Positions 19,879 to 37,378 of a stretch of 64,000 bases of DNA are shown piece after piece. The translations under genes and the position numbers were made by a program. This stretch comes from an uncultured Acidobacteriaceae bacterium. GTDB taxonomy: Bacteria; Acidobacteriota; Terriglobia; Terriglobales; Acidobacteriaceae. A model generated the notes under the pieces. That model was not told where the DNA came from. It worked only from the letters and a program-made list of their open reading frames with translations, and did no database searches. The stretch is from contig CAWBEO010000001.1 in the NCBI GenBank assembly GCA_963787995.1, forward strand, positions 78,337-142,336, given 5' to 3'. The number at the start of each line of letters is the position of its first letter. The first letter of the stretch is position 1.

Positions 19879-20268
19879 TCAATAAATACCGTTAAGCTGC
19901 CGATGGTACGTTGGCATATATGACATCGGCGGCTGCATCGCTTTTTCATAACTTACAATAAAAAAAGTGGATGCAAGCAAAGCGGATATGAGAACGAGTC
20001 GCATCCTGGGGGACATTTTCGGCAGCTTCCAGCCGAGGAGAAACATAGCCGCCGAAACGGCAATTGGCCAAACAAACACTCCAACAATGGACAGGTGCGG
20101 GTACTTAAAAATGCCAACTGTTTCGTCGATCATCCATATGCCAAAACCGCATACGATGTCCCAAAAAAGGTTCAGGATATGACCGCCTGGAAATGGAACA
20201 TACGGTAGAATCACGCCCAGAAAAAGTGGCGAGAGACAAAACCACAGAGATACAAGAGTCCTTCGCAT
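19879..20268 (-). CDS. Orphan putative immunity protein (membrane, 129 aa)
   Basis: GAGGAGG RBS before ATG 20268; AT-rich; several hydrophobic helices; occupies the immunity slot of a cassette. Confidence 0.7.
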   Translation of the reverse strand: MRRTLVSLWFCLSPLFLGVILPYVPFPGGHILNLFWDIVCGFGIWMIDETVGIFKYPHLSIVGVFVWPIAVSAAMFLLGWKLPKMSPRMRLVLISALLASTFFIVSYEKAMQPPMSYMPTYHRQLNGIY

Positions 20269-20287: not shown

Positions 20288-20371
20288 TCATTTGCAGCCC
20301 ATGTAGGCCCGCGGGGCAAGGCAAAGCGCCATCCCCAGCAGCACAATCAGTTTGCCAGTCACGCCGTTCAT
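20288..20371 (-). pseudogene. Signal-peptide-only remnant of a fourth Rhs toxin gene
   Basis: MNGVTGKLIVLLGMALCLAPRAYMGCK*, homologous to the Rhs N-terminus MNGVSRKLIVLLGMGLCLAPRVLA, with the same upstream leader. Confidence 0.85.
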
Positions 20372-20812
20372 TCCGTTCCTTGGGGCGCTGCGTCAGTGGT
20401 CAGTGATCAGAAAAAGACTGCGGGTTGAGGTTCGTGGACTTCTGAACAAGGGCGAAGAAAGGGGGAACGCACCCCGGGGGGGGGGGTAGTTTTTTGGTGA
20501 GTCGAACCTTCACCGAGGATGCGGCTTTCTCCCTTTTCCTTTCTGTTCATCTCTCTCCTTCACTTCCCTAGTCTGCGCGAACGAGTCATAATTCTCTGCA
20601 AAGTTCTTGAAGAAAAAACCTGCGGGTTGAGGTTCTTGGTCTCCCACTCATCCACGATAAAACTGTGGATGAATGGGGCACAAAGGTTCTTGGTTATTTC
20701 ATGACCGGGCAACCTGCCATTAGTGGTGTTTCTCACTTTTTATTCCCGGCACCCGGGCCACCCGCCCACCTGCCACAAAGGTTCTTGGTTATCTTATGAC
20801 CGGGCCACCTGC
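20372..20812. repeat. Inter-cassette spacer, expanded copy (REP-like hairpin 20643-20681, duplicated GGTTCTTGGTTAT..ATGACCGGG segments, ~200-bp insert)
   Basis: Shares blocks with 24417-24565 and 28129-28275. Confidence 0.85.
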
Positions 20813-21231
20813 CCAGCCGTCAACCGGCGTTCGGCCAATCTACACAAGAACCACCCAAGCCAAGCAAATATTCCGAGCACTAAGCCGCCAAATACCCTAG
20901 AGAAGCTCTCATTCCACCACGGCGGATAAAAGCTATCTGAAGCGACGCCCAATAGCACAACATATACTATTGGATTTACTAGCATCATCCATGCGCTCGA
21001 CAATTCCCTGCGTAGCGAGACACCTATCAGGCCACCTGCTATGAATGGCGCTAGTATCGTTCTTACCATAGTATCGTAAGCCGCTGGAGGACTCCAGCCG
21101 CTATGGCGAAAGTCTGTAATGATCGGCCATATGCCATCCACAATACCTGAATCCAGCAGCACAAACACTACGAAGACTAGGAGCCAGAGTGAGAATCCCA
21201 ACAGCAAACGTATCGCACTATTTCTGGTCAT
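20794..21231 (-). CDS. Putative immunity protein of Rhs toxin 1 (about 4 TM)
   Basis: Start overlaps toxin stop (21228-21231); AT-rich; last codons and stop lie within the repeat element. Confidence 0.8.
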   Translation of the reverse strand: MTRNSAIRLLLGFSLWLLVFVVFVLLDSGIVDGIWPIITDFRHSGWSPPAAYDTMVRTILAPFIAGGLIGVSLRRELSSAWMMLVNPIVYVVLLGVASDSFYPPWWNESFSRVFGGLVLGIFAWLGWFLCRLAERRLTAGQVARS

Positions 21232-24200
21232 TTCGTCACCGTAAGGTAGTTTTTCCCATCCTCTTTTTTCAAGAGATCGAGCACTTTACCAAATTGCTGC
21301 ATCGCATGTGGACTATCCTCGCTCACGTTGATACACCCATCACTGACGTGCCCATGGTGCAGTTGTGCGCCGAGCCCATCAAATCTGAAATGATGCGCAT
21401 ATCTAAAGATACGAGACATGCGGTCATTTGGCCATGGTTCGAGCCTGAAACGATCATGCGAGTCTATAAAATACTCATTCATTTTGTAACGTCCTTCAGG
21501 AATTGGGCCGTTTCTGTCAAATTCAAACCGGAGCTGATTCTGCTTCTCGCCCAGGCCCGAAAACACTCCTTCGGGACCAACTGTGTCAACTTCATGTTGA
21601 TTACCAGACAATTTTGCCGATGGTTTGTTTGACGTACAAACCAACGTGTGACCAGATATTGAGTACGAACATTCTGCCATTCCCGTCGGATCAGTTCTAG
21701 TCAGCGGATTGTTCCGCACGTAAGCATACATATTCAGGTGTTGAGGATCCTCAATCCATTCATTGAATTTTTTACGCTCGGAATCTTTCCCCGTGGAGTC
21801 TCCCCCGGAATTCTGCCACTTTAGCCAAGGCAACGGATCGGGCGACATAAAGCGACCCATTGAACTTGCGTAGTACCTTGCCCCGAAGTAGTCGTTGCCT
21901 GATTCGGCGTCTCTTTCTTTGCCGGTGAAGTGGTGTTCGGTGGGGTATTGGGTGCTGGGGAAGTAGGGCGAGCCGGAGGGGTTTTCGCAGCTCAGGCCGT
22001 CGCCGTAGGGAAGGCTGACGCAGGTCTGCTCTAAGACGCCGGCTGCGTCGGTTTGGGCGCGGCGGGTGCCGAGCGGGTCATCGAGATAGAAGTGCAGGCC
22101 GTCGGCGTCGTAGGTGCCGAGCAGCTTGCCGCCGGCCCAGACGTTGGTGTGCTGCCAGGTGAGCCCCATGGTGACCGCATTGGTTCCACCGGTCATGGCC
22201 GCGCCGGAAGAGGAAATCGACAGTCCTGTGGTGGGATTTGATTGAGAGCAGTTGCAGCCGGCGAGGGAGGCGCTGAATGTATAGTTGGCCGCCGATCCCA
22301 CCGTCGTCGAGGTAAATGTCACCACGGGTCCATTGGCCGCGGCGGTGATCAAGCCCCCGCAACTGGCCTGCGAGGCTATTGCAGCCGCGATGGAGGCCGA
22401 CGTCGTTCCGCCCGTTTCTCCGGCTCCGAAATTTACATCGATTACGCAAGACTCACCGTTCGGGAGCGTGCCGATGAGAACAATAAATGCGCCGTTCATC
22501 CCCGATAGCAACGTGCCGGAGATGGTGGCCGAGGCGGTGGAGGCGCTACCTGCGCTTGGAGTACCGACGTTGACGCCGATCTCCGAGAGCTGCTCGCCGC
22601 CCAGGCCGAGGGTGAAGTCGGTGGTGGTTTGGAAGCCGTTTTGGCTGGGGTCGCAGGACCAGGCGGTGAGGAGGCCTTTGGCGACGCGGATGCCGTCGGC
22701 GTCGTAGAGGTAGCCGGTCATGGTGAAGCCGCCCAGGCCGGGGAGGGCGCTGACGGCGCAGATGCGGCCCTCGGCATCGTAGAGGTACTGGTTGCCGGTG
22801 GTGGCGTCGCCGACAACATCGCCCGCCTGATCGTAGTTCAGAGGCGAGGGCGAGGGCTGACTGCCACCCGGCGCGATGACGCCCGTGACTTGGTTATTGG
22901 CGCCAAAGACCCATTGGGAGGCCGACTGAATCGGGCATGGAGTGGATTGCGGACTTTGCACCGTGCGGTTGCCGAAGTCGTCGTAGGCCCAGCAGTAGTA
23001 GGGGGTGACGCCGGGGGGCGTGAGGCTGAGGCCGGAGACAGAGTCGGCGGCGGAGGCGAGGCGGTTGAGCGTGTCGTAGGCGAAGTTCCAGGAGCCCATG
23101 ACGGTGTCGGCATAGGCGAGCAGATTGCCGGCGGGGTCGTAGCCGCCCGCGGGAACGGTGTAGGTGTAGACCGGGAGGCCGGTGGTGGTGGTGCTGGCGG
23201 AGCCGCCTTCGAGGTTGCCGGTGACCGGTGTGGGAACGAAGGACGGCTCGGCGAAGAGCGTGGAGTTCCAACTGGTGGCCTGGAGGCTGTAGCTCAAGTC
23301 GATGGCCGTGGTCTTGGCTTCGATGTAGAGCGCGTCGTCAACGGCGGTAACGGCGACCTGGGTGGTGGAGGCGGTGAGCTTTTCAGCGACCGTGGAGGGG
23401 GTGTCTCCTTGGCCGTAACTGGCTGTGGAGACTGTGGTTCCGCCCACGGTGAGGGTGACCGTGCCGGTGTCGTAGGCGGCCCCGGTGACGGTGATGGGGA
23501 CGGAGAGGTTGAGGCTGGCGTAATCGGCGGCGTCGGAGGGGATGAAGGCGGCGAAGAGCATCTGCTCGCCGGCGGTCAACTGCGGGCTGCCGACGATGGT
23601 AAGGCTGGGCGCGCCCGATCCCGTGGTGGTGGAGTTGGCCAGCACCTTGCCGGCCTCGTTGGTGTAGGTGAAGGCGCCGGCGACGTTGGCGTTGGCGTTG
23701 AACTGCGCGACGCCGAGGAGCGTGGTGTCGGGGATGGCGGCCGGCGCCGGCCAGGTGATTACCGGCGTGGTCTTGAGGACGTTAAGGGTGACGGAGGTGG
23801 TGAGGGGGGCGAATCCTGATCCGGTGGGCGGGGTGTAGACGACCGTGAGCGTCTGCGGGCCGGCGGGCAGAACGGCGCCCGATTGAGGCGTGTAATAGCA
23901 TGTGCCCGGCTGCGCGGGCGCGGTTGAAATCGGGCAGGCGGTCAGCACACCTGCCACGCTGACCTGAGCGTCCAACTGCGCCGCACTCAGCGCCGCCGGA
24001 CGGGTGATGGGCGCGGGAGGAACCCAGGCGAGGGCGGGCGGAGGCGGGTTAAATGTTACCGTGAAGGGCCCTGTGGAGCTGCTGAGGGTGAGCGGCAAAT
24101 TGAAGGTATCCGCACCCTTCAGATGGAGGTACAGCACCGCGCCGACAGCGTGGGCGCAGAGGCCGGAGGCGATATAGTCTTTGGAGAACTTGGCGCCGAA

Positions 24201-24416
24201 GGCCGAGGCCAGCGAGGCGGGGGTGGAGTACGGGCCGTAGGGGACGGTCTCGGTGAAGGCGTTGCCGGGGGTGTCTTGGAAGGCGATGGTCAGCGAGCCG
24301 GAGGAACTGCCCGACGCGCCCGTCAGGGTCACCGCCGCATCCGCCGCAAGAACCCGCGGGGCAAGGCAAAGCCCCATCCCCAGCAGCACAATCAGTTTGC
24401 GTGACACGCCGTTCAT
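21228..24416 (-). CDS. Rhs C-half toxin 1 with Sec signal; C-terminal Tlde1/DUF2778-like L,D-transpeptidase-fold toxin
   Basis: Core HFTGKERDAESGNDYFGARYY..MGRFMSPD, NNPLTRTDPTG cleavage motif; CT has GPIPEGRY and LHHGHVSDGCINV. Confidence 0.88.
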   Translation of the reverse strand: MNGVSRKLIVLLGMGLCLAPRVLAADAAVTLTGASGSSSGSLTIAFQDTPGNAFTETVPYGPYSTPASLASAFGAKFSKDYIASGLCAHAVGAVLYLHLKGADTFNLPLTLSSSTGPFTVTFNPPPPALAWVPPAPITRPAALSAAQLDAQVSVAGVLTACPISTAPAQPGTCYYTPQSGAVLPAGPQTLTVVYTPPTGSGFAPLTTSVTLNVLKTTPVITWPAPAAIPDTTLLGVAQFNANANVAGAFTYTNEAGKVLANSTTTGSGAPSLTIVGSPQLTAGEQMLFAAFIPSDAADYASLNLSVPITVTGAAYDTGTVTLTVGGTTVSTASYGQGDTPSTVAEKLTASTTQVAVTAVDDALYIEAKTTAIDLSYSLQATSWNSTLFAEPSFVPTPVTGNLEGGSASTTTTGLPVYTYTVPAGGYDPAGNLLAYADTVMGSWNFAYDTLNRLASAADSVSGLSLTPPGVTPYYCWAYDDFGNRTVQSPQSTPCPIQSASQWVFGANNQVTGVIAPGGSQPSPSPLNYDQAGDVVGDATTGNQYLYDAEGRICAVSALPGLGGFTMTGYLYDADGIRVAKGLLTAWSCDPSQNGFQTTTDFTLGLGGEQLSEIGVNVGTPSAGSASTASATISGTLLSGMNGAFIVLIGTLPNGESCVIDVNFGAGETGGTTSASIAAAIASQASCGGLITAAANGPVVTFTSTTVGSAANYTFSASLAGCNCSQSNPTTGLSISSSGAAMTGGTNAVTMGLTWQHTNVWAGGKLLGTYDADGLHFYLDDPLGTRRAQTDAAGVLEQTCVSLPYGDGLSCENPSGSPYFPSTQYPTEHHFTGKERDAESGNDYFGARYYASSMGRFMSPDPLPWLKWQNSGGDSTGKDSERKKFNEWIEDPQHLNMYAYVRNNPLTRTDPTGMAECSYSISGHTLVCTSNKPSAKLSGNQHEVDTVGPEGVFSGLGEKQNQLRFEFDRNGPIPEGRYKMNEYFIDSHDRFRLEPWPNDRMSRIFRYAHHFRFDGLGAQLHHGHVSDGCINVSEDSPHAMQQFGKVLDLLKKEDGKNYLTVTK

Positions 24417-24565
24417 TCCGTTCCTTGGGGCAATGCGTCAGTGGTCAGTGGACAGAAAAGACTGCTGGTTGAGGTTTGTGGTCTCCCACTCATCCACGAT
24501 AAAACTGTGGATGAATGGGGCACAGCGGTTTGTGGTTATTTTTTGACCGGGCCACCTGCCCACCT
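24417..24565. repeat. Inter-cassette spacer with REP-like hairpin (CCCACTCATCCAC-loop-GTGGATGAATGGGG, 24485-24523)
   Basis: Near-identical to 28129-28275. Confidence 0.9.
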
Positions 24566-24574
24566 GCCCCGAAC

Positions 24575-25207
24575 TCATTTCTCGCAATATTGCATCAAAT
24601 CCCTTAATTGGGAACTCAACCCTGCGCCTGAAAAGTGTATATGTAATTTGTGCGGTAAGATTGTGCCGCCTATAGTGATGCCAGCATCCATAAACCCCCC
24701 ACTCATATCCGTAACGATCTTTTTCCATCTTTCTCTCGTACCTTTCAAATATGCTAATGCGAAATATCCATCACACTCAAATCCTGGATCATACCACTTT
24801 GAATCTCCATAAAGAGGGTACGTTACGATTTTTTCGATTTGTGACTTCAGATTTACTGACATTTCAAATGTACTCCCATTTTGCACATTATTAGGGATGT
24901 CCGGCCCAATAAACATAGACAACTCTTTATCTGGAATAATATCGTGAACATTTTCGATATATATTCCTAATACTGGGACTCCTGACTTTCCTGATTCAAT
25001 ATGTTCAAAAATAAATACACTTGCCTTCATCTTCTTGCCGCCATATTCTGCCTCAGCAGGAATGGAGATTGCAACTATATTTTTATCTACTTTACCATCA
25101 TCAGACATAACTGTTTTATGCCATGCAGCTTGAGCATGAGCAAGACTCGATATCGCAGAAAAAACGGTAATCAACACTACAATGAGAGAATTAAATCGAT
25201 TGTTCAT
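24575..25207 (-). CDS. Putative periplasmic immunity protein of Rhs toxin 2
   Basis: Overlaps toxin stop; signal peptide ending AHA-Q; AT-rich. Confidence 0.8.
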   Translation of the reverse strand: MNNRFNSLIVVLITVFSAISSLAHAQAAWHKTVMSDDGKVDKNIVAISIPAEAEYGGKKMKASVFIFEHIESGKSGVPVLGIYIENVHDIIPDKELSMFIGPDIPNNVQNGSTFEMSVNLKSQIEKIVTYPLYGDSKWYDPGFECDGYFALAYLKGTRERWKKIVTDMSGGFMDAGITIGGTILPHKLHIHFSGAGLSSQLRDLMQYCEK

Positions 25208-28128
25208 TTTTTCCCTTTCTTCTGTTCTTTCACTTTAGGTTTGTCATCTGGAAAGAATATTATCCGATAGTTATTAGCATCTTCTTCATAATGTCCGGTG
25301 CTGTTACCTCCAAAATTACGGTCCGACTCTCGAATGCTGGGCACACCATTCCATTGATCAACCATTTTCTCACCAGCAACCACCTTATCGCCAGTCTTTG
25401 TCTTGATTGTATGACTAAAAAATCCAAAATGGAACGCTGCGTGCCCGGTATGTGGCTTACTCCATGAATAAGTATTATTTGGCCCTGCAGCTGTTGCAAT
25501 AGCCGTTCCTATCGGCGTATTTGCATCAGGCTGAGGTCCAAATCTCCACCCTTTTGTAGAACCTGGCGCGTACTTTTGTATCAAAGCTACACATTCGGAT
25601 TTGCCATCAGAACTACTTATTACAGGTTCGCCACCACGCAGCGAACCAACGTCTGAAACGATTAACATATGATACCCTTTAGGTACATTTATTCCGCCAT
25701 TACCTGATGTACTAATTGCAGTTGGGTGCGATGCCTCATTAAATTTATTCCAAAGCTGCCAAATAAGATGACTCAATGGGTCAAAATATGAACCATGGCC
25801 ATCTGAGTCTATTCTATCCATTGGATTATTTTCAACATACGCATACAGATTCAAGGTCTGCGGATCATCCAGCTTCACATACGGAACCGGCTCTGCTTTG
25901 GCGCTCCAGTCGGGCGACATAAAGCGGCCCATGGCGCTGGAGTAGTAGCGGGCTTCGAAGTAGTCGTTGCCGGATTCGGCGTCGCGTTCTTTGCCGGTGA
26001 AGTGGTGTTCGGTGGGGTATTGGGTGCTGGGGAAGTAGGGCGAGCCGTTGGGATTTTCGCAGCTCAGATCGTCGCCGTAGGGAAGGCTGACGCAGGTCTG
26101 CTCCAGGACGCCGGCCGAGTCGGTTTGGGCGCGGCGGGTGCCAAGCGGGTCATCGAGATAGAAGTGCAGGCCGTCGGCGTCGTAGGTGCCGAGCAGCTTG
26201 CCGCCGGCCCAGACGTTGGTGTGCTGCCAGGTGAGCGTGGCGGTGACCGTGACGCTGGAGCCGGAGCCGGTGAGGGTCTGGTTGACGCCGATCTCCGAGA
26301 GCTGCTCGCCGCCCAGGCCGAGGGTGAAGTCGGTGGTGGTTTGGAAGCCGTTTTGGCTGGGGTCGCAGGACCAGGCGGTGAGGAGGCCTTTGGCGACGCG
26401 GATGCCGTCGGCGTCGTAGAGGTAGCCGGTCATGGTGAAGCCGCCCAGGCCGGAGAGGGCGCTGACGGCGCAGATGCGGCCCTCGGCATCGTAGAGGTAC
26501 TGGTTGCCGGTGGTGGCGTCGCCGACAACATCGCCCGACTGGTCGTAGTTCAGAGGCGAGGGCGAGGGCTGACTGCCACCCGGCGCGATGACGCCCGTGA
26601 CTTGGTTATTGGCGCCAAAGACCCATTGGGAGGCCGACTGAATCGGGCATGGAGTGGATTGCGGACTTTGCACCGTGCGGTTGCCGAAGTCGTCGTAGGC
26701 CCAGCAGTAGTAGGGGGTGACGCCGGGGGGCGTGAGGCTGAGGCCGGAGACAGAGTCGGCGGCGGAGGCGAGGCGGTTGAGCGTGTCGTAGGCGAAGTTC
26801 CAGGAGCCCATGACGGTGTCGGCATAGGCGAGCAGATTGCCGGCGGGGTCGTAGCCGCCCGCGGGAACGGTGTAGGTGTAGACCGGGAGGCCGGTGGTGG
26901 TGGTGCTGGCGGAGCCGCCTTCGAGGTTGCCGGTGACCGGTGTGGGAACGAAGGACGGCTCGGCGAAGAGCGTGGAGTTCCAACTGGTGGCCTGGAGGCT
27001 GTAGCTCAAGTCGATGGCCGTGGTCTTGGCTTCGATGTAGAGCGCGTCGTCAACGGCGGTAACGGCGACCTGGGTGGTGGAGGCGGTGAGCTTTTCAGCG
27101 ACCGTGGAGGGGGTGTCTCCTTGGCCGTAACTGGCTGTGGAGACTGTGGTTCCGCCCACGGTGAGGGTGACCGTGCCGGTGTCGTAGGCGGCCCCGGTGA
27201 CGGTGATGGGGACGGAGAGGTTGAGGCTGGCGTAATCGGCGGCGTCGGAGGGGATGAAGGCGGCGAAGAGCATCTGCTCGCCGGCGGTCAACTGCGGGCT
27301 GCCGACGATGGTAAGGCTGGGCGCGCCCGATCCCGTGGTGGTGGAGTTGGCCAGCACCTTGCCGGCCTCGTTGGTGTAGGTGAAGGCGCCGGCGACGTTG
27401 GCGTTGGCGTTGAACTGCGCGACGCCGAGGAGCGTGGTGTCGGGGATGGCGGCCGGCGCCGGCCAGGTGATTACCGGCGTGGTCTTGAGGACGTTAAGGG
27501 TGACGGAGGTGGTGAGGGGGGCGAATCCTGATCCGGTGGGCGGGGTGTAGACGACCGTGAGCGTCTGCGGGCCGGCGGGCAGAACGGCGCCCGATTGAGG
27601 CGTGTAATAGCATGTGCCCGGCTGCGCGGGCGCGGTTGAAATCGGGCAGGCGGTCAGCACACCTGCCACGCTGACCTGAGCGTCCAACTGCGCCGCACTC
27701 AGCGCCGCCGGACGGGTGATGGGCGCGGGAGGAACCCAGGCGAGGGCGGGCGGAGGCGGGTTAAATGTTACCGTGAAGGGCCCTGTGGAGCTGCTGAGGG
27801 TGAGCGGCAAATTGAAGGTATCCGCACCCTTCAGATGGAGGTACAGCACCGCGCCGACAGCGTGGGCGCAGAGGCCGGAGGCGATATAGTCTTTGGAGAA
27901 CTTGGCGCCGAAGGCCGAGGCCAGCGAGGCGGGGGTGGAGTACGGGCCGTAGGGGACGGTCTCGGTGAAGGCGTTGCCGGGGGTGTCTTGGAAGGCGATG
28001 GTCAGCGAGCCGGAGGAACTGCCCGACGCGCCCGTCAGGGTCACCGCCGCATCCGCCGCAAGAACCCGCGGGGCAAGGCAAAGCCCCATCCCCAGCAGCA
28101 CAATCAGTTTGCGTGACACGCCGTTCAT
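25204..28128 (-). CDS. Rhs C-half toxin 2 with Sec signal; C-terminal BPSL0067/Tae2-like peptidoglycan amidase
   Basis: Rhs core, NNPMDRIDSDG; CT has ECVALIQ (Cys), PIGTAIAT, GHAAF (His), DQW. Confidence 0.88.
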   Translation of the reverse strand: MNGVSRKLIVLLGMGLCLAPRVLAADAAVTLTGASGSSSGSLTIAFQDTPGNAFTETVPYGPYSTPASLASAFGAKFSKDYIASGLCAHAVGAVLYLHLKGADTFNLPLTLSSSTGPFTVTFNPPPPALAWVPPAPITRPAALSAAQLDAQVSVAGVLTACPISTAPAQPGTCYYTPQSGAVLPAGPQTLTVVYTPPTGSGFAPLTTSVTLNVLKTTPVITWPAPAAIPDTTLLGVAQFNANANVAGAFTYTNEAGKVLANSTTTGSGAPSLTIVGSPQLTAGEQMLFAAFIPSDAADYASLNLSVPITVTGAAYDTGTVTLTVGGTTVSTASYGQGDTPSTVAEKLTASTTQVAVTAVDDALYIEAKTTAIDLSYSLQATSWNSTLFAEPSFVPTPVTGNLEGGSASTTTTGLPVYTYTVPAGGYDPAGNLLAYADTVMGSWNFAYDTLNRLASAADSVSGLSLTPPGVTPYYCWAYDDFGNRTVQSPQSTPCPIQSASQWVFGANNQVTGVIAPGGSQPSPSPLNYDQSGDVVGDATTGNQYLYDAEGRICAVSALSGLGGFTMTGYLYDADGIRVAKGLLTAWSCDPSQNGFQTTTDFTLGLGGEQLSEIGVNQTLTGSGSSVTVTATLTWQHTNVWAGGKLLGTYDADGLHFYLDDPLGTRRAQTDSAGVLEQTCVSLPYGDDLSCENPNGSPYFPSTQYPTEHHFTGKERDAESGNDYFEARYYSSAMGRFMSPDWSAKAEPVPYVKLDDPQTLNLYAYVENNPMDRIDSDGHGSYFDPLSHLIWQLWNKFNEASHPTAISTSGNGGINVPKGYHMLIVSDVGSLRGGEPVISSSDGKSECVALIQKYAPGSTKGWRFGPQPDANTPIGTAIATAAGPNNTYSWSKPHTGHAAFHFGFFSHTIKTKTGDKVVAGEKMVDQWNGVPSIRESDRNFGGNSTGHYEEDANNYRIIFFPDDKPKVKEQKKGKK

Positions 28129-28275
28129 TCCGTTCCTTGGGGCAATGCGTCAGTGGTCAGTGGACAGAAAAGACTGCTGGTTGAGGTTTGTGGTCTCCCA
28201 CTCATCCACGATAAAACTGTGGATGAATGGGGCACAGAGGTTCTTGGTTATTTTATGACCGGGCCACCTGCCCCA
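28129..28275. repeat. Inter-cassette spacer with REP-like hairpin (28197-28235)
   Basis: Near-identical to 24417-24565. Confidence 0.9.
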
Positions 28276-28285
28276 CAGTTCTATA

Positions 28286-28822
28286 TCAACTTTCACATAG
28301 ATCATAGTCTGACGAGGTATCGGCTGCGTGTGTTAGGCGCCAGCCATCGTGGAACGCAAGCAGTGCATCGGGACCTAACCAATAGCGCTTGACTTTCGTG
28401 AAATCCTTTCGAACTGCTGATCGAACCGCGCGAAACAATTTCACAGATAGCTCTCTATCTGAAATCGTTGAAAAATCTCCCATGATAATCGTTCGTTCCC
28501 CCAACACTCCTCCAGGAGAAAAAAGTATCGATTCCGGATTGAAAATCTGTGTAACATCGAAACGGAGATTGCCATCAATCATTTTCATCGTCTCAACGCG
28601 AATATCATAGTTCTTCTCAACGATCAAATAGGAACCGCTATCGTGTGATCGTTTACCCATCGCGCGCCCCAAACTGGGAATCGCACTGTAGCTTTCATAT
28701 TTTTCAATAGTTGGTCCACTAATTCTCCCCGCTCTGACGTATTTGATCTCGTGAAAATTCTCAATCCTAGTCAAAAGTGCAATCAGATCTTTTTCGCAGG
28801 TGTAAACGTATATTGCACTCAT
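28286..28822 (-). CDS. Putative cytoplasmic immunity protein of Rhs toxin 3
   Basis: Probable start MSAIYVY overlapping the toxin stop, preceded by GGAGGG; no signal peptide; AT-rich. Confidence 0.75.
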   Translation of the reverse strand: MSAIYVYTCEKDLIALLTRIENFHEIKYVRAGRISGPTIEKYESYSAIPSLGRAMGKRSHDSGSYLIVEKNYDIRVETMKMIDGNLRFDVTQIFNPESILFSPGGVLGERTIIMGDFSTISDRELSVKLFRAVRSAVRKDFTKVKRYWLGPDALLAFHDGWRLTHAADTSSDYDLCES

Positions 28823-31800
28823 CTCGCCCTCCAGGTATCCGGTGGTCGTTGAGGCATCGGCGGTAATGGTTTGACTTGTCCCCACTTCGGTACCCAAAGG
28901 AGAATATCATTAGGGTATGCCTTGCGAATTCTACCAAGTGCTGCATCCTCTCTGGGCGTCGGAGCACCATTCGCATCTGTATCCACAGTCTGAATTCTTA
29001 CTCTAACTCCTGTATTTTCATCTTTCATCGTGGTATCCACCCAAGTGGATCCCATCGGTCCGCCTCCAATACCGGGAATGTATTCTTCACTTTGTTCACC
29101 ACCTCCATGTTCTACAACAAGCCCGAGGCGCTTCCAGCTTTGAGCAATATAATAATTTTGACGTCTCGTCATATTGCTGCCCCACCGTCCCCCTCCACCG
29201 CTGAGATATCTGAAGGCAAATCCTTCTAAATGACCGAATTGCTCGGCCAACCCAGCTTCTTGCTCAGGAGTGAGACTCGGGGCTTTTCGTGCAGCTGCCT
29301 CAGCTTTTTTATAGCTTTCAAGCTCATCTTTATAATCTTCCCATTTCTGTATTTCACGTAAATCTTCCGCATCTTCTTTGAGATTCTCCGGCTTTGCTTC
29401 AGTCTTAGGATCCTGTGTCTCCTGATGGCCATCTACATCAACACCTTCAAGTGGGTTATTGCCGACATAGGCATAGAGATTAAGCGTCTGCGGAGTGTCC
29501 AGCTTCGCATACGGCACCGGCTCTTCTTTGGCGCTCCAGTCGGGCGACATAAAGCGGCCCATGGCGCTGGAGTAGTAGCGGGCCCCGAAGTAGTCGTTGC
29601 CGGATTCGGCGTCGCGTTCCTTGCCGGTGAAGTGGTGTTCGGTGGGGTATTGGGTGCTGGGGAAGTAGGGCGAGCCGTTGGGATTTTCGCAGCTCAGGCC
29701 GTCGCCGTAGGGCAGGCTGACGCAGGTCTGCTCCAGGACGCCGGCCGAGTCGGTTTGGGCGCGGCGGGTGCCGAGCGGGTCGTCGAGATAGAAGTGCAGG
29801 CCGTCGGCGTCGTAGGTGCCGAGCAGCTTGCCGCCGGCCCAGACGTTGGTGTGCTGCCAGGTGAGCCCCATGGTGACCGCATTGGTTCCACCGGTCATGG
29901 CCGCGCCGGAAGAGGAAATCGACAGTCCTGTGGTGGGATTTGATTGAGAGCAGTTGCAGCCGGCGAGGGAGGCGCTGAATGTATAGTTGGCCGCCGATCC
30001 CACCGTCGTCGAGGTAAATGTCACCACGGGTCCATTGGCCGCGGCGGTGATCAAGCCCCCGCAACTGGCCTGCGAGGCTATTGCAGCCGCGATGGAGGCC
30101 GGCGTCGTTCCGCCCGTTTCTCCGGCTCCGAAATTTACATCGATTACGCAAGGCTCACCGTTCGGAAGCGTGCCGATGAGAACAATAAATGCGCCGTTCA
30201 TCCCCGATAGCAACGTGCCGGAGACGGTGGCCGAGGCGGTGGAGGCGCTACCTGCGCTTGGAGTACCGACGTTGACGCCGATCTCCGAGAGCTGCTCGCC
30301 GCCCAGGCCGAGGGTGAAGTCGGTGGTGGTTTGGAAGCCGTTTTGGCTGGGGTCGCAGGACCAGGCGGTGAGGAGGCCTTTGGCGACGCGGATGCCGTCG
30401 GCGTCGTAGAGGTAGCCGGTCATGGTGAAGCCGCCCAGGCCGGAGAGGGCGCTGACGGCGCAGATGCGGCCCTCGGCATCGTAGAGGTACTGGTTGCCGG
30501 TGGTGGCGTCGCCGACAACATCGCCCGACTGGTCGTAGTTCAGAGGCGAGGGCGAGGGCTGACTGCCACCCGGCGCGATGACGCCCGTGACTTGGTTATT
30601 GGCGCCAAAGACCCATTGGGAGGCCGACTGAATCGGGCATGGAGTGGATTGCGGACTTTGCACCGTGCGGTTGCCGAAGTCGTCGTAGGCCCAGCAGTAG
30701 TAGGGGGTGACGCCGGGGGGCGTGAGGCTGAGGCCGGAGACAGAGTCGGCGGCGGAGGCGAGGCGGTTGAGCGTGTCGTAGGCGAAGTTCCAGGAGCCCA
30801 TGACGGTGTCGGCATAGGCGAGCAGATTGCCGGCGGGGTCGTAGCCGCCCGCGGGAACGGTGTAGGTGTAGACCGGGAGGCCGGTGGTGGTGGTGCTGGC
30901 GGAGCCGCCTTCGAGGTTGCCGGTGACCGGTGTGGGAACGAAGGACGGCTCGGCGAAGAGCGTGGAGTTCCAACTGGTGGCCTGGAGGCTGTAGCTCAAG
31001 TCGATGGCCGTGGTCTTGGCTTCGATGTAGAGCGCGTCGTCAACGGCGGTAACGGCGACCTGGGTGGTGGAGGCGGTGAGCTTTTCAGCGACCGTGGAGG
31101 GGGTGTCTCCTTGGCCGTAACTGGCTGTGGAGACTGTGGTTCCGCCCACGGTGAGGGTGACCGTGCCGGTGTCGTAGGCGGCCCCGGTGACGGTGATGGG
31201 GACGGAGAGGTTGAGGCTGGCGTAATCGGCGGCGTCGGAGGGGATGAAGGCGGCGAAGAGCATCTGCTCGCCGGCGGTCAACTGCGGGCTGCCGACGATG
31301 GTAAGGCTGGGCGCGCCCGATCCCGTGGTGGTGGAGTTGGCCAGCACCTTGCCGGCCTCGTTGGTGTAGGTGAAGGCGCCGGCGACGTTGGCGTTGGCGT
31401 TGAACTGCGCGACGCCGAGGAGCGTGGTGTCGGGGATGGCGGCCGGCGCCGGCCAGGTGATTACCGGCGTGGTCTTGAGGACGTTAAGGGTGACGGAGGT
31501 GGTGAGGGGGGCGAATCCTGATCCGGTGGGCGGGGTGTAGACGACCGTGAGCGTCTGCGGGCCGGCGGGCAGAACGGCGCCCGATTGAGGCGTGTAATAG
31601 CATGTGCCCGGCTGCGCGGGCGCGGTTGAAATCGGGCAGGCGGTCAGCACACCTGCCACGCTGACCTGAGCGTCCAACTGCGCCGCACTCAGCGCCGCCG
31701 GACGGGTGATGGGCGCGGGAGGAACCCAGGCGAGGGCGGGCGGAGGCGGGTTAAATGTTACCGTGAAGGGCCCTGTGGAGCTGCTGAGGGTGAGCGGCAA

Positions 31801-32118
31801 ATTGAAGGTATCCGCACCCTTCAGATGGAGGTACAGCACCGCGCCGACAGCGTGGGCGCAGAGGCCGGAGGCGATATAGTCTTTGGAGAACTTGGCGCCG
31901 AAGGCCGAGGCCAGCGAGGCGGGGGTGGAGTACGGGCCGTAGGGGACGGTCTCGGTGAAGGCGTTGCCGGGGGTGTCTTGGAAGGCGATGGTCAGCGAGC
32001 CGGAGGAACTGCCCGACGCGCCCGTCAGGGTCACCGCCGCATCCGCCGCAAGAACCCGCGGGGCAAGGCAAAGCCCCATCCCCAGCAGCACAATCAGTTT
32101 GCGTGACACGCCGTTCAT
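28819..32118 (-). CDS. Rhs C-half toxin 3 with Sec signal; C-terminal putative nuclease (PD-(D/E)XK-like)
   Basis: Rhs core, NNPLEGVDVDG; CT has EEYIP...TWVDTTM...RIQTVDT; toxin class is inferred. Confidence 0.85.
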   Translation of the reverse strand: MNGVSRKLIVLLGMGLCLAPRVLAADAAVTLTGASGSSSGSLTIAFQDTPGNAFTETVPYGPYSTPASLASAFGAKFSKDYIASGLCAHAVGAVLYLHLKGADTFNLPLTLSSSTGPFTVTFNPPPPALAWVPPAPITRPAALSAAQLDAQVSVAGVLTACPISTAPAQPGTCYYTPQSGAVLPAGPQTLTVVYTPPTGSGFAPLTTSVTLNVLKTTPVITWPAPAAIPDTTLLGVAQFNANANVAGAFTYTNEAGKVLANSTTTGSGAPSLTIVGSPQLTAGEQMLFAAFIPSDAADYASLNLSVPITVTGAAYDTGTVTLTVGGTTVSTASYGQGDTPSTVAEKLTASTTQVAVTAVDDALYIEAKTTAIDLSYSLQATSWNSTLFAEPSFVPTPVTGNLEGGSASTTTTGLPVYTYTVPAGGYDPAGNLLAYADTVMGSWNFAYDTLNRLASAADSVSGLSLTPPGVTPYYCWAYDDFGNRTVQSPQSTPCPIQSASQWVFGANNQVTGVIAPGGSQPSPSPLNYDQSGDVVGDATTGNQYLYDAEGRICAVSALSGLGGFTMTGYLYDADGIRVAKGLLTAWSCDPSQNGFQTTTDFTLGLGGEQLSEIGVNVGTPSAGSASTASATVSGTLLSGMNGAFIVLIGTLPNGEPCVIDVNFGAGETGGTTPASIAAAIASQASCGGLITAAANGPVVTFTSTTVGSAANYTFSASLAGCNCSQSNPTTGLSISSSGAAMTGGTNAVTMGLTWQHTNVWAGGKLLGTYDADGLHFYLDDPLGTRRAQTDSAGVLEQTCVSLPYGDGLSCENPNGSPYFPSTQYPTEHHFTGKERDAESGNDYFGARYYSSAMGRFMSPDWSAKEEPVPYAKLDTPQTLNLYAYVGNNPLEGVDVDGHQETQDPKTEAKPENLKEDAEDLREIQKWEDYKDELESYKKAEAAARKAPSLTPEQEAGLAEQFGHLEGFAFRYLSGGGGRWGSNMTRRQNYYIAQSWKRLGLVVEHGGGEQSEEYIPGIGGGPMGSTWVDTTMKDENTGVRVRIQTVDTDANGAPTPREDAALGRIRKAYPNDILLWVPKWGQVKPLPPMPQRPPDTWRAR

Positions 32119-32147
32119 TCCGTTCCCTCTCGGTGACGCCGTGGTAC

Positions 32148-35100
32148 TTACTGCAGTGTGACAACCGCTTCAATGACGCCCTTGCCGGAGTCGAGCGAGC
32201 CGAGGGCCTTGCCGATGACCGCGCCCAACATGCGGCTGCGGTCGGTGCCCTTCATGGCATAACCGGTGGTGGAGGATGCGACCAGCAGATCGCCGATTTT
32301 GATGGGGCCGTTTTCCGCGCTCACCTTGACGGGGACAATGCCCACCAAGGCCATAGGCACCTCATCGGGAGATTTCGGGGTGGTCTGGCGGCGGCCTACG
32401 GTGCCGGGCTTGGTGGAATAGATGCCGGTGACCAGCGTCGAATAGGCCTCGTTGGACTTGAGGAACTTGCCGGGCGCGCTGGGATCAATGACCAGCACGT
32501 CGCCCGGCGTGAAGTTCTTGCGGTCGCCGGAGACATTGACCGACTCGGCATAGTCGCCGCCGCAGGTGACGCCGGTGTAGGCGGTGGACTGGGTGGTGCC
32601 GTCAGAGAAGGTGAGGGCGCCGCCGCTGCCGCTGGTCAACGTGATACCGCCGTTGACTTCGAGCTTCGCGCCGGGGGTGGTTGTGCCGATGCCGAGTGAA
32701 CCGGCTCCGGTCAAAAACATCAGAGTCGTTCGCGGGGTTCCGCTGATAGGAGCGTTCATGAACGCAAATCCACCCGATCCGCCGCCCTGATTATTGATGA
32801 AGTCCGTTTCTCCTGTGCCCTTGGTTAGCGCATTCCAGCCCAAATACGCACCCTGTGCTGCTGTTGTGGGGTTCGTATTTCCTGACACATGCAAGTAACC
32901 GTTGACATCAAGAGGCACCGCGGGAATCGTCGTTCCTATTCCCACGTTTCCACTTGGTATAACGACGTTCGTCCACCCGCCCTGGTTGATTGTCAAGGTT
33001 CCAGTTTGTGCCTGAATGACGCTCCAGGCTGACCCTGCGCCGCCTATTGATAGAGCACCTGAAGTTCCGCCAGGATATCCGCTTCCTGAAGTGCCAGTGA
33101 TCACTATGTTCCCCGCCACGTCTAAGGCTGAAGCCGGTGTCGTCGTCCCGATCCCGACGCTGCCGGAAGTATTCCAAATTCCGTTTCCGGGAAAATTCGT
33201 GTTTGCGGTGAATGTCTGCGGCGCGCTCCATGTCGTGGCGCTGACCGTCGGCCAGGATGTGATGCAGTTTGTGCCATTGATGCAGTAGCCGCCCGATGAA
33301 TTGATCTGGCCAGAAACGTCGAGCTTAAAAGCTGGTGTCGTCGTGCCGATGCCGACGCTGCCGAGGCCTAAATAATATTGCGACGCATAAAATCCCATTG
33401 GGGTATAAGCAGTATTGGCATCGTTAATCGAAAGAATGCCTGGCGTTCCGCTGAAAGCGCTATTTACATTGGAAATAAAATTTATGTGCTGATTGGTTCC
33501 CAATTTAATATCAACATTGCCGATCGGTGACGTCGTTCCAAACCCGACACTTCCGCCTCCATTGACCACCAACGCCTGCGGAGTGATTTTTGTTCCTGTT
33601 GGATTAAACACTTGCAGGGCCAGATAATCCGATCCCTGAGTTGTGCTTCCCGTATGAGTGAACTGATAAGCGTAAGCGGACGGGTTGAAGATGGCTCCAG
33701 TAGTAATCTCCTGATTGAATGCAAGCGAGCCAAAAGTGGTTCCCCCATCGCCTGGATCAATGCTTACGCCTGTTCCATTACTGTTGATATCGAGCTTGCT
33801 GCTTGGAGTAGTCGTGCCAATACCGACGTTTTCAGAGGGCAACTGAGTGATCACGGAGTTGGTAAGCGTAGAAGTAGTGGGAGAGGAAGGAGTGGTCAGC
33901 AAGGGCACGTTGCCTACAATGGGAGTCACTGACTTGGCGACCACGATGCTCTGCGTCACAGTAGGGGCCGCAGAATAAGTGCTGTTGCCGGCCTGCGTCG
34001 CCTGAATGGTGCAAGTACCTGTGGCAAGGAAGGTTGCCGTTGTGCCGGAGACGGTGCAAACACTGGTCGTAGTCGAGGCAAAGCTGACGGCCAAACCAGA
34101 ACTGGCCGTAGCTGTTAGAGTCAGCGGCGTACCTACTGTCTGCAAAGCAATATATGGGAAACTAATGGTCTGCGCAGTGCCATTGACAGTAAAGCTCTGT
34201 GTCACGGTAGGGGCCGCAGCGTAAGCGCTGTTGCCGGCCTGCGTCGCCTGAATGGTGCAAGTGCCAGCGGCAATGAAGGTTGCCGTCGTTCCAGAGACGG
34301 TGCAAACGCTCGTCGTCGTCGAGGCGAAGCTGACAGTCAAACCAGAACTGGCTGTAGCTGTAAGCGTTAGTGGCGTTCCTATGCTCTGTGTGCTGGGAGC
34401 GGCAAAGGTGATAGTCTGCGACTTCGAATTAACACTAAAGCTCTGTGTCACGGCAGGGGCCGCAGTGAAGGAGCTGTTGCCGGCCTGCGTCGCCTGAATG
34501 GTGCATGTGCCTGTGGCGATGAAAGTTGCTGTCGTGCCGGAAACTGTGCAAACGCTGGTCGTTGTCGAGGCAAAGCTGACGGCCAAACCAGAGCTAGCCG
34601 TAGCCGAAAGCGTCAGCGGTGTCCCCACCGTCTGGGTGCTGGGAGCGGCAAAGGTGATGGTCTGCGATCCTATGCTGGCAGTAAAGCTCTGTGTCACCGC
34701 CGGGGCCGCAGCGTAAGTGCTGTTGCCGGCCTGCGTCGCCTGAATGGTGCATGTGCCCGTGGCAATAAAGTTTGCCGTCGTGCCAGAGACTGTGCAAACG
34801 CTGGTCGTTGTCGAGGCAAAGCTGACGGCCAAACCAGAGCTAGCCGTAGCCGAAAGCGTCAGCGGTGTTCCCACCGTCTGGGGGCTGGGAGCGGCAAAGG
34901 TAATGGTCTGCGCCTTGCCATTGACAGTAAAGCTTTGTGTCACCACAGGAGCGGCAGCGTAAGTGCTGTTGCCTGCCTGCGTTGCCTGAATGGTGCAAGT
35001 GCCGGCGGCGAGGAATGTGGCAGTTGTGCTGGAGACAGTGCAAATGCTAGTCGTCGTCGAGGCAAAGCTGACTGCCAAACCAGAACTCGCCGTGGCCGAA

Positions 35101-37138: not shown

Positions 37139-37378
37139 TCATTCGCTCAGTTCCGAAAGTGTGCGATTATTACCTGTGTCCCCGACAGAAAGATTGCTGA
37201 ATGAATCGAATGCAGCCCCGTCAGGCACAAAGAAATCATTTGTTCTAGCCGAGCTATTGAGAACCGCAGATCGATGAGCATTCGCAACGCCGACTATCCG
37301 ATTCGCGCCAGCGTAGCCTGTTTGATAGATTGCAGATAACCCGCTGCCCGGATCGCCGGCTCCATGCTCTTTACTCAT
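37139..37378 (-). pseudogene. Degenerate NHL-repeat fragment
   Basis: PDGAAFDSFSNLSVGDTGNNR resembles NHL PxGVAFDxxGNLYVADTGNNR; start overlaps upstream stop (ATGA). Confidence 0.5.

Follow-up and report, generated by a model that had tools for sequence, protein, structure and literature searches.

A 64,000-nt stretch of DNA from an uncultured Acidobacteriaceae bacterium (GenBank assembly GCA_963787995.1, contig CAWBEO010000001.1, positions 78,337 to 142,336; hereafter the window) carries three complete genes for toxins with an Rhs core, C, B and A, which lie directly in tandem, head-to-tail, with a period of 3.7–4.0 kb. These genes probably represent a tandem array of whole toxin units that were duplicated long ago, with 5′ halves that have been homogenised and cassettes that have diversified. 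A first-pass annotation of the window had already described three complete toxin genes with near-identical 1.85-kb 5′ halves; the open reading frames (ORFs) and their coordinates proved to be as described, and the shared half measures 1,848 nt. The array comprises the following features (window coordinates).

28819–32118, minus strand: toxin gene C, 1099 aa, TIGR03696 62.3 bits; shared 5′ block 30271–32126, 405-nt insert 29866–30270, Rhs core 29425–29865, toxin tip 28822–29424
28286–28822, minus strand: immunity candidate I_C, 178 aa; its ATG overlaps the stop codon of toxin C (ATGA)
28129–28285, minus strand: spacer ("tail") 1 between I_C and gene B; a dispersed repeat resembling repetitive extragenic palindromic (REP) elements, with a 13-bp hairpin
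25204–28128, minus strand: toxin gene B, 974 aa, TIGR03696 62.8 bits; shared 5′ block 26281–28136, 45-nt B-specific segment in place of the insert 26236–26280, Rhs core 25795–26235
25207–25794, minus strand: tip of gene B, BPSL0067 family
24575–25207, minus strand: immunity candidate I_B, 210 aa, Sec-type signal peptide; ATGA overlap with the stop codon of toxin B
24417–24574, minus strand: spacer ("tail") 2; positions −109 to −1 match tail 1 exactly, and metagenome contigs L110 and L111 hold orthologs of the distal part
21228–24416, minus strand: toxin gene A, 1062 aa, TIGR03696 60.1 bits; shared 5′ block 22569–24424 (three substitutions), insert 22164–22568, Rhs core 21678–22163
21231–21677, minus strand: tip of gene A, Tlde1/YkuD-like (PF10908 E = 2e-4, under the cut-off)
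20794–21231, minus strand: immunity candidate I_A, 145 aa, four hydrophobic segments; ATGA overlap with the stop codon of toxin A

Identity and divergence of the three copies

No difference separates genes B and C over 1,856 nt (26281–28136 and 30271–32126, 100% identity; ungapped comparison and BLAST). The identical block begins 8 nt before the ATG and reaches codon 616 (..EIGVN), and on both sides it ends exactly where the flanking sequences become non-homologous. By the same two methods, A and B are 99.65% identical over 1,993 nt, including 145 nt of the upstream spacer, and within the gene A departs from the half shared by B and C only at nt 1587, 1591 and 1675, which amounts to one synonymous change plus A531S and P559S. 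The last two are the substitutions DQ[A/S]GD and AL[P/S]G that had been noticed by eye at first pass. A and C match over a longer distance (98.9% over 2,587 nt) because they have in common the 405-nt insert after EIGVN, which gene B lacks and where it has 45 unrelated nt. After the shared half or the insert, the Rhs cores are 85–95% identical and the toxin tips cannot be aligned.

Pairwise alignment and synonymous divergence (dS), which the first-pass annotation had put forward as a check, gave dS values of 0–0.002 for the shared half and 0.085–0.25 for the cores. In the 5′ block (616 codons) dS was 0 between B and C and 0.002 for both A–B and A–C; it was 0.009 in the 405-nt insert (A–C), and in the Rhs core it was 0.085 for B–C and 0.25 for A–B and A–C, with the end of the core saturated. 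The ratio dN/dS (nonsynonymous to synonymous divergence) in the core was 0.09–0.14, indicating that the core of every copy evolved under constraint. The differences specific to A are packed into 89 nt at the 3′ end of the block, and a permutation test conditioned on each pair's own differences gave p ≤ 1e-5 for the difference-free run of 1,594 nt between A and C and 3e-5 for that of 1,695 nt between A and B (−109 to +1586). The end points of identity are specific to each pair: −109 to +1586 for A–B, −8 to +1848 for B–C, and through the insert for A–C.

The contrast between a GC-rich conserved part and AT-richer tip and immunity segments, visible at first pass, holds in numbers: the GC fraction is 0.674 in the shared block against 0.42–0.49 in the tips and 0.38–0.50 in the immunity genes (genome mean, 0.572). 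Each copy also keeps its ribosome-binding site and signal peptide, as was originally claimed; the protein starts are identical (MNGVSRKLIVLLGMGLCLAPRVLA followed by AD, signal-peptide-like), with AGGA or GGGA 7–10 nt upstream of the start codon. The 5′ block occurs only three times in the genome as a whole (5.59 Mb in 2 contigs, 100% complete).

Probable gene conversion and the age of the array

The test of age and homogenisation relied on two independent metagenome contigs, L110 (JGI 3300042090) and L111 (ENA ERZ27249857). A same-genus search returned no close ortholog of the 5′ block, with at most one copy per genome at 39–57% identity, which is why metagenome contigs were used. On L110 as on L111, the 3′ end of I_B is followed by the spacer and the beginning of a toxin gene, and the two contigs are thus orthologs of the I_B-to-A junction. 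In the distal spacer A matches L110 throughout, and 7 sites there distinguish A from B. From −109 on, A equals B and C at every site and L110 differs, with 10 differences from A, B and C in the first 332 coding nt (3%). Because the I_B-to-A junction exists in this environmental strain, the copy downstream of cassette B predates the strain split of 2–3%. As judged from these alignments, the 5′ part of A in the source genome appears to have been overwritten later by B/C sequence, through gene conversion or an equivalent unequal exchange.

A decayed fourth unit lies downstream of I_A and consists of two features.

20288–20793, minus strand: tail 3 and relic of a fourth copy (relic D), with a second dispersed repeat inserted at 20438–20610
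19879–20268, minus strand: I_D, an orphan membrane protein of 129 aa that resembles an immunity protein; it follows the relic on the downstream side

Here the spacer–ATG junction recurs (20308–20437) and is 91.5% identical to that of A, B and C over 130 nt. The ATG at 20371 is followed by a stop after 27 codons and then by the 129-aa membrane ORF I_D, a candidate orphan immunity gene. Relic D has states in common with L110 against A, B and C. Since the junction recurs at the relic, the duplicated unit consists of the 8 nt before the ATG, the toxin gene, the immunity gene and the ~157-nt spacer, and no spacer is found upstream of C because C is the first unit. We rejected the notion that orphans were "completed" by conversion from a main gene, given that C has no homology to the spacer upstream of −8. 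Conversion cannot bring a 5′ half before an orphan, and with the same junction present at relic D a duplication of whole units is required.

The first-pass annotation had ascribed the identical halves to "recent tandem amplification or gene conversion". Of these two processes, conversion is upheld by the ortholog comparison and the divergence strata, and recent amplification is not, the array being older than the 2–3% strain split and the fourth-copy relic being 8.5% diverged. A very recent duplication or triplication of the 5′ half or of the unit, with no gene conversion and with tips swapped in later, nevertheless agrees with the mere zero to three differences per 1.85 kb, and the rhs-main/rhs-orphan model of Salmonella does yield a pair of complete genes that have their 5′ part in common (PMC3967940). 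That scenario is improbable: it conflicts with the I_B–spacer–toxin start junction in a strain 2–3% diverged and with a relic that has the same spacer–ATG junction yet is 8.5% diverged, the end points of identity vary by pair, and no orphan remnants lie between the copies, although the model predicts them.

In L110 and L111, the toxin copy that follows I_B and the spacer is truncated after codon 108 (117-aa ORF) and is succeeded by another spacer repeat. The array thus also decays by deletion, and units are gained and lost between strains.

The ~157-nt spacer that follows each immunity gene is a dispersed REP-like repeat with about 40 BLAST matches genome-wide and a 13-bp hairpin. It occurs in the window at 24417–24574, 28129–28285 and 20611–20814, and elsewhere at C1:348171–348348, 350504–350601, 353333–353397, 937468–937523, 940016–940056 and about 30 more places. 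Copies stand on both sides of two orphan Rhs core–tip–immunity cassettes elsewhere in the genome, ordinary orphans located at C1:349569–350324 and C1:938131–940002. The repeat may serve as a 3′ recombination handle of toxin cassettes. The second dispersed repeat (20438–20610), in the spacer upstream of the relic, resembles a miniature inverted-repeat transposable element of about 170–290 nt; it is 75–90% identical to more than 15 copies on both contigs and contains a C10/G4 homopolymer run at 20471–20487.

Reality of the repeat in the genome

Repeats of 1.9–2.6 kb at ≥99% identity are error-prone in assembly, and a short-read draft (NCBI GCA_049279215.1) did collapse the block into a single contig of 1,856 nt. 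An artefact of assembly or polishing, in which the genome has fewer complete copies or the true identity is lower, is nonetheless very improbable. The collapsed contig is exactly the B=C block and ends at both homology breaks; as these are forks on both sides, at least two complete copies with different flanks are needed to explain it. The source genome is in 2 contigs and 100% complete, and the copies have distinct contexts, with C placed after a fibre gene, B without the insert, and A with 3 + 4 private substitutions. All three unique tip–immunity segments (20655–21903, 24496–25925 and 28246–29555) were found at 100% identity in Logan contigs of run ERR10755936, an independent assembly, and two further runs contained one such segment each. 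In a Logan contig the I_B protein adjoins the same B-type tip.

Layout in related loci

The family has homologs in Acidobacteriaceae, namely Terracidiphilus, Edaphobacter, Granulicella and Paracidobacterium. A survey of relatives with one genome per species covered 77 related loci. Two or more tandem cores were present in 25 of the 77, and all 25 consist of one long gene followed by start-less ORFs of 120–750 aa which begin inside the YD or Ig region and so are classical orphans. The repeats shared by main gene and orphan in these relatives span 300–1,644 nt at 86–99.8% identity. No locus among the 25 had two complete copies, an absence that is weak evidence, since short-read metagenome-assembled genomes (MAGs) tend to collapse near-identical complete copies. 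The layout of one main gene plus orphans does not apply to the window, where both B and A are complete, beginning 8 nt ahead of the ATG. Complete copies in place of 5′-truncated orphans, singled out at first pass as a departure from typical Rhs loci, are therefore atypical even within this family.

Properties of the toxin proteins, tips and immunity genes

All three toxins match TIGR03696, the Rhs-associated core of NCBIfam (cut-off 32.5 bits), with the scores listed above, and have the core motif GKERDAESGNDYF.ARYY...GRFMSPD. Each contains about 8 YD repeats, for which the Pfam RHS_repeat score of 19.8 bits is just under the cut-off of 22. An AlphaFold2 model of B had a mean predicted local distance difference test (pLDDT) score of 65, with values of 80–90 over residues 120–690, YD region 425–690 included, and consisted of a signal peptide, Ig-like domains, a small α/β domain and a YD sheet. 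When the model was searched with Foldseek, the best matches were the shells of teneurin, type VI secretion system (T6SS) Rhs and TcB–TcC/YenB–YenC, at E values of about 1e-10; PDB entries 4igl, 5kis and 6suq were among them. Judged from the modelled fold, the proteins would thus have the YD-repeat β-sheet shell of Rhs toxins. A complete cocoon, about 900–1000 aa of shell, is not contained in the one polypeptide: in B, shell and core are confined to residues ~425–778, with about 350 aa of shell.

The cores end in ..NNPLTRTDPTG (A), ..IDSDG (B) and ..VDVDG (C), where the family consensus is DPDGH. A DPxG-type core end, a polymorphic tip and an adjacent immunity gene, which characterise Rhs proteins, thus appear to be present in all three. 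Neither Pfam nor NCBIfam gave a match to a trafficking domain linked to PAAR or VgrG and the T6SS; the proteins begin with a Sec-type signal peptide and continue with Ig-like domains. Delivery of the toxins by the T6SS was rejected on account of the signal peptides and the lack of a PAAR or VgrG domain. In Pfam, neither the whole toxins nor the immunity proteins nor the predicted proteins P0126 and P0127 had a significant match. From these sequence features, A, B and C are best described as short, predicted Sec-exported Rhs-core proteins and not as classical full-length Rhs genes.

The three tips are mutually unrelated, and PDB sequence searches with them returned nothing at E ≤ 10. Tip A may be Tlde1- or L,D-transpeptidase-like: it carries the motif HHGHVSDGCINV, comparable to the H..S.GC catalytic motif of Tlde1/YkuD L,D-transpeptidases, with a PF10908 match that is under the cut-off (22.1 bits vs 30.1; E = 2e-4) and a YkuD (PF03734) match at E = 0.03. 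Tip B belongs to the BPSL0067 family (NCBIfam NF033857, 32.6 bits vs the cut-off of 27, residues 842–953). Each immunity candidate lies downstream of its toxin and is ATGA-coupled to the toxin stop. I_A, with four hydrophobic segments, is a candidate membrane immunity protein; I_B has a Sec-type signal peptide and is therefore predicted to be periplasmic; I_C has no Pfam match and no signal peptide or transmembrane segment, and is therefore predicted to be cytoplasmic.

An apparent split Rhs context

Two large genes lie upstream of the array.

37375–41595, minus strand: core-less YD-repeat "shell" gene P0125, up to 1406 aa
32148–37142, minus strand: gene for a secreted protein of 1664 aa; it contains 11 repeat units of 82 aa in tandem, and its C-terminus is fibre-like

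P0125 (1406 aa as annotated) has RHS repeats and DUF6443 and no Rhs core; its true start is probably an internal ATG rather than the annotated one. In a contiguous metagenomic Rhs protein of 1666 aa (P0106), residues 18–1150 align to P0125 and residues 1181–1460 align to residues 425–777 of toxin B. With the matches in this order, the two window genes are colinear with one ordinary Rhs, and the short toxins resemble the C-terminal member of a Rhs that is split over two genes. In another genus (locus G146), a fibre-like gene, a core-less shell gene of 1273 aa, a gene for a 759-aa toxin with a signal peptide and an immunity gene are adjacent. Among the 31 related loci with an upstream shell homolog, shell and core are in separate ORFs in 25 and in a single ORF in 6. 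The gap between the separate ORFs is mostly −250 to +100 nt, and in 2 of the 25 split loci there are stops inside the shell match, so that these may be damaged.

This arrangement suggests that the three toxins could be alternative partners of one shell, like several TcC per TcB (PMC11435725). A literature search for "split Rhs" or "two-component Rhs" outside Tc toxins found nothing. We tentatively consider a further idea, somewhat doubtful at present, that the toxins are "cap-plus-warhead" subunits of a bipartite Rhs container, in which any one of the three separately exported toxins would complete P0125, either in the periplasm or at the surface. If this is true, one shell would give three differently loaded containers, conversion would keep the docking half fitting, and the system would amount to the TcB/TcC principle in an antibacterial form that lacks TcA and is widespread in Acidobacteriaceae.

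The closest syntenic locus, L033, is in an uncultured Terracidiphilus MAG (CAYOYX010000009.1, 1–13210) and has a shell gene that is 53–70% identical. Its order is shell, Ig-repeat region and toxin, the last two in one 3,043-aa frame; the shell match contains a stop, and there is a single core and no tandem copies.

By eye, a module of ~65 aa (GTVTLTV..YG.G.T...VA..LA..IN....VTA...G..V.LTS) seems to recur across the locus. It was seen twice in the 1483-aa upstream protein (41546–45997; P0127 C-terminal ~250 aa), in toxin residues ~28–100 and ~314–375, and in the inserts 22164–22568 and 29866–30270, and the end of P0125 (37375–37430) resembles its first strand. On this by-eye similarity, the module could be a shared docking domain.

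Expression of the array

The genes from 45997 down to 20794 are all co-directional with short gaps, and their co-transcription is plausible. A scan for promoters and terminators gave no more matches than expected by chance and none in the spacers, and Rfam showed no family in 19–33 kb. The spacer hairpin of 13 bp has no U-tract (minimum free energy −51.4 kcal/mol, z = −2.4).

It could be proposed that only C is expressed, through the upstream operon, and that B and A are a silent, orphan-like reserve which is activated by recombination. A gap of 29 nt separates the ATG of C from the stop of the upstream gene (1664 aa), and B and A are placed behind 157-nt spacers with a stable hairpin and no promoter consensus. 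The same hairpin, however, lacks a U-tract and no terminator was called, and the genes continue in one direction with short gaps. A reserve would need neither a start codon, a Shine–Dalgarno-like motif and a signal peptide kept at 100% in every copy nor a constrained core, and relatives retain truncated orphans instead. We therefore regard a silent reserve as unlikely.

Proposed history and points that weigh against it

In the history that we favour, a whole unit (8 nt before the ATG, toxin gene, coupled immunity gene and ~157-nt spacer) would have been duplicated at least three times, long ago. The 3′ cassettes, made up of the core end, tip and immunity gene, would since have been exchanged or have diverged to give different warheads: a Tlde1/L,D-transpeptidase-like tip with a membrane immunity protein in A, a BPSL0067-family tip with a periplasmic one in B, and a tip with a cytoplasmic one in C. 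One unit would have decayed to a signal-peptide stub and an orphan immunity gene. Repeated gene conversion or unequal exchange would keep the three surviving 5′ halves identical, with tracts that begin in the spacer or at the edge of homology and extend 3′-wards until homology ends. The encoded proteins, in the order signal peptide, Ig-like stalk, about 8 YD repeats, autoproteolytic Rhs core and tip, would all be translated from a single long operon mRNA, each serving as an alternative, toxin-bearing partner for the one core-less YD shell protein encoded upstream. Selection for fit with a single shell partner would explain the homogenised 5′ halves.

Several points weigh against this history. 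The ortholog test spans only the first ~330 nt of the gene on short metagenome contigs, the polishing of long-read assemblies can raise the apparent identity between repeats, and the divergence of the cores may be a sign of imported cassettes and not of the age of the array. As no σ70-like promoter or terminator was found in the spacers, B and A may need read-through or be silent. Many related short toxins (44 of the 77 loci) have no shell gene in the flank examined, and the physical assembly of the toxins with P0125 is a prediction from colinearity and conserved adjacency.

Other features of the window

In the 1664-aa gene, eleven tandem repeats of 246 nt (82 aa) at window positions 33913–36700 are 61–89% identical, and toxin residues 126–260 are homologous to such 82-aa units in several other large proteins of the genome. 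Plus-strand ORFs of 396–509 aa (22629–23819, 26002–27531 and 30331–31521) are antisense to the shared GC-rich block and repeated with it; they are most likely by-products of GC richness.

Comparison with known systems

The usual Rhs locus has one expressed gene with silent spare tips and is a textbook case of serial toxin replacement, and the cores of E. coli K-12 rhsA–C are about 99% identical. Rhs genes of Enterobacteriaceae consist of a GC-rich core and an AT-rich core-extension, with dissociated C-terminal tips downstream (Jackson et al., 2009; PMC2935791). The array resembles this classical form in the GC-rich conserved 5′ part, the AT-rich polymorphic tip and the downstream immunity gene, and also in having several complete, recombining paralogs with near-identical conserved parts in one genome. 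It differs in that the copies are directly tandem, not dispersed, with no truncated tips following, and that the YD shell is about 350 aa, preceded by a Sec signal peptide and free of any link to PAAR, VgrG or the T6SS.

For rhs-main/rhs-orphan of Salmonella Typhimurium, a duplication–recombination model has been proposed (Koskiniemi et al., 2014; PMC3967940). There, as here, complete rhs genes (two in Salmonella) have the same 5′ part and different tips and retain their immunity genes. The Salmonella state is transient, arose under laboratory selection and kept orphan copies between the genes, whereas the present array is fixed, has three copies and a relic with no interspersed orphans, and its homogenisation was seen by ortholog comparison.

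The tandem order yenB–yenC1–yenC2 offers a third comparison. In Tc (ABC) toxins, TcB and TcC form a cocoon and several TcC paralogs have different hypervariable regions (PMC11435725). The likeness lies in a predicted shell of two polypeptides, of which the smaller has the Rhs core and a variable toxic C-terminus, and in several alternative small subunits per large subunit. None of the TcB-type Pfam families SpvB and TcdB_mid was found in P0125, P0126 or P0127 at E ≤ 1. Unlike Tc toxins, the locus has no TcA and no TcB β-propeller or SpvB/TcdB_mid domains, and it is split much closer to the C-terminus; each partner carries a signal peptide, immunity genes accompany the tips, which look antibacterial, and the assembly is a prediction.

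MafB-N, Microscilla-N and Amoebophilus APD1/2 are constant, lineage-specific N-terminal domains, each shared by several polymorphic toxins of full length (Zhang et al., 2012; PMC3482391), and parallel deployment and docking on a constant partner have been proposed for these toxins (PMC3482391). Common to these toxins and ours are a signal peptide with a conserved, lineage-restricted N-terminal region, several complete toxins and polymorphic C-termini. Those paralogs are mostly dispersed or accompanied by orphans, the protein families differ, and DNA-level identity and gene conversion were not the subject there.

What sets the locus apart is the fixed tandem trio, its concerted evolution, the short Sec-exported Rhs-core protein and the context of a two-gene split. 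In its fixed state, several complete Rhs genes could be used side by side, and a direct ortholog test of a rare kind points to gene conversion rather than recent duplication as what keeps the delivery halves identical. The two-gene (split) Rhs form is little described and recurs across Acidobacteriaceae. With perfect direct repeats of 1.85 kb at a distance of 4 kb, variants that have lost or gained units are expected to be frequent, and populations should hence be heterogeneous in their toxin repertoire. The locus is also a natural system for asking whether a YD cocoon can be built from two exported polypeptides outside Tc toxins, and whether concerted evolution preserves the compatibility of subunits.

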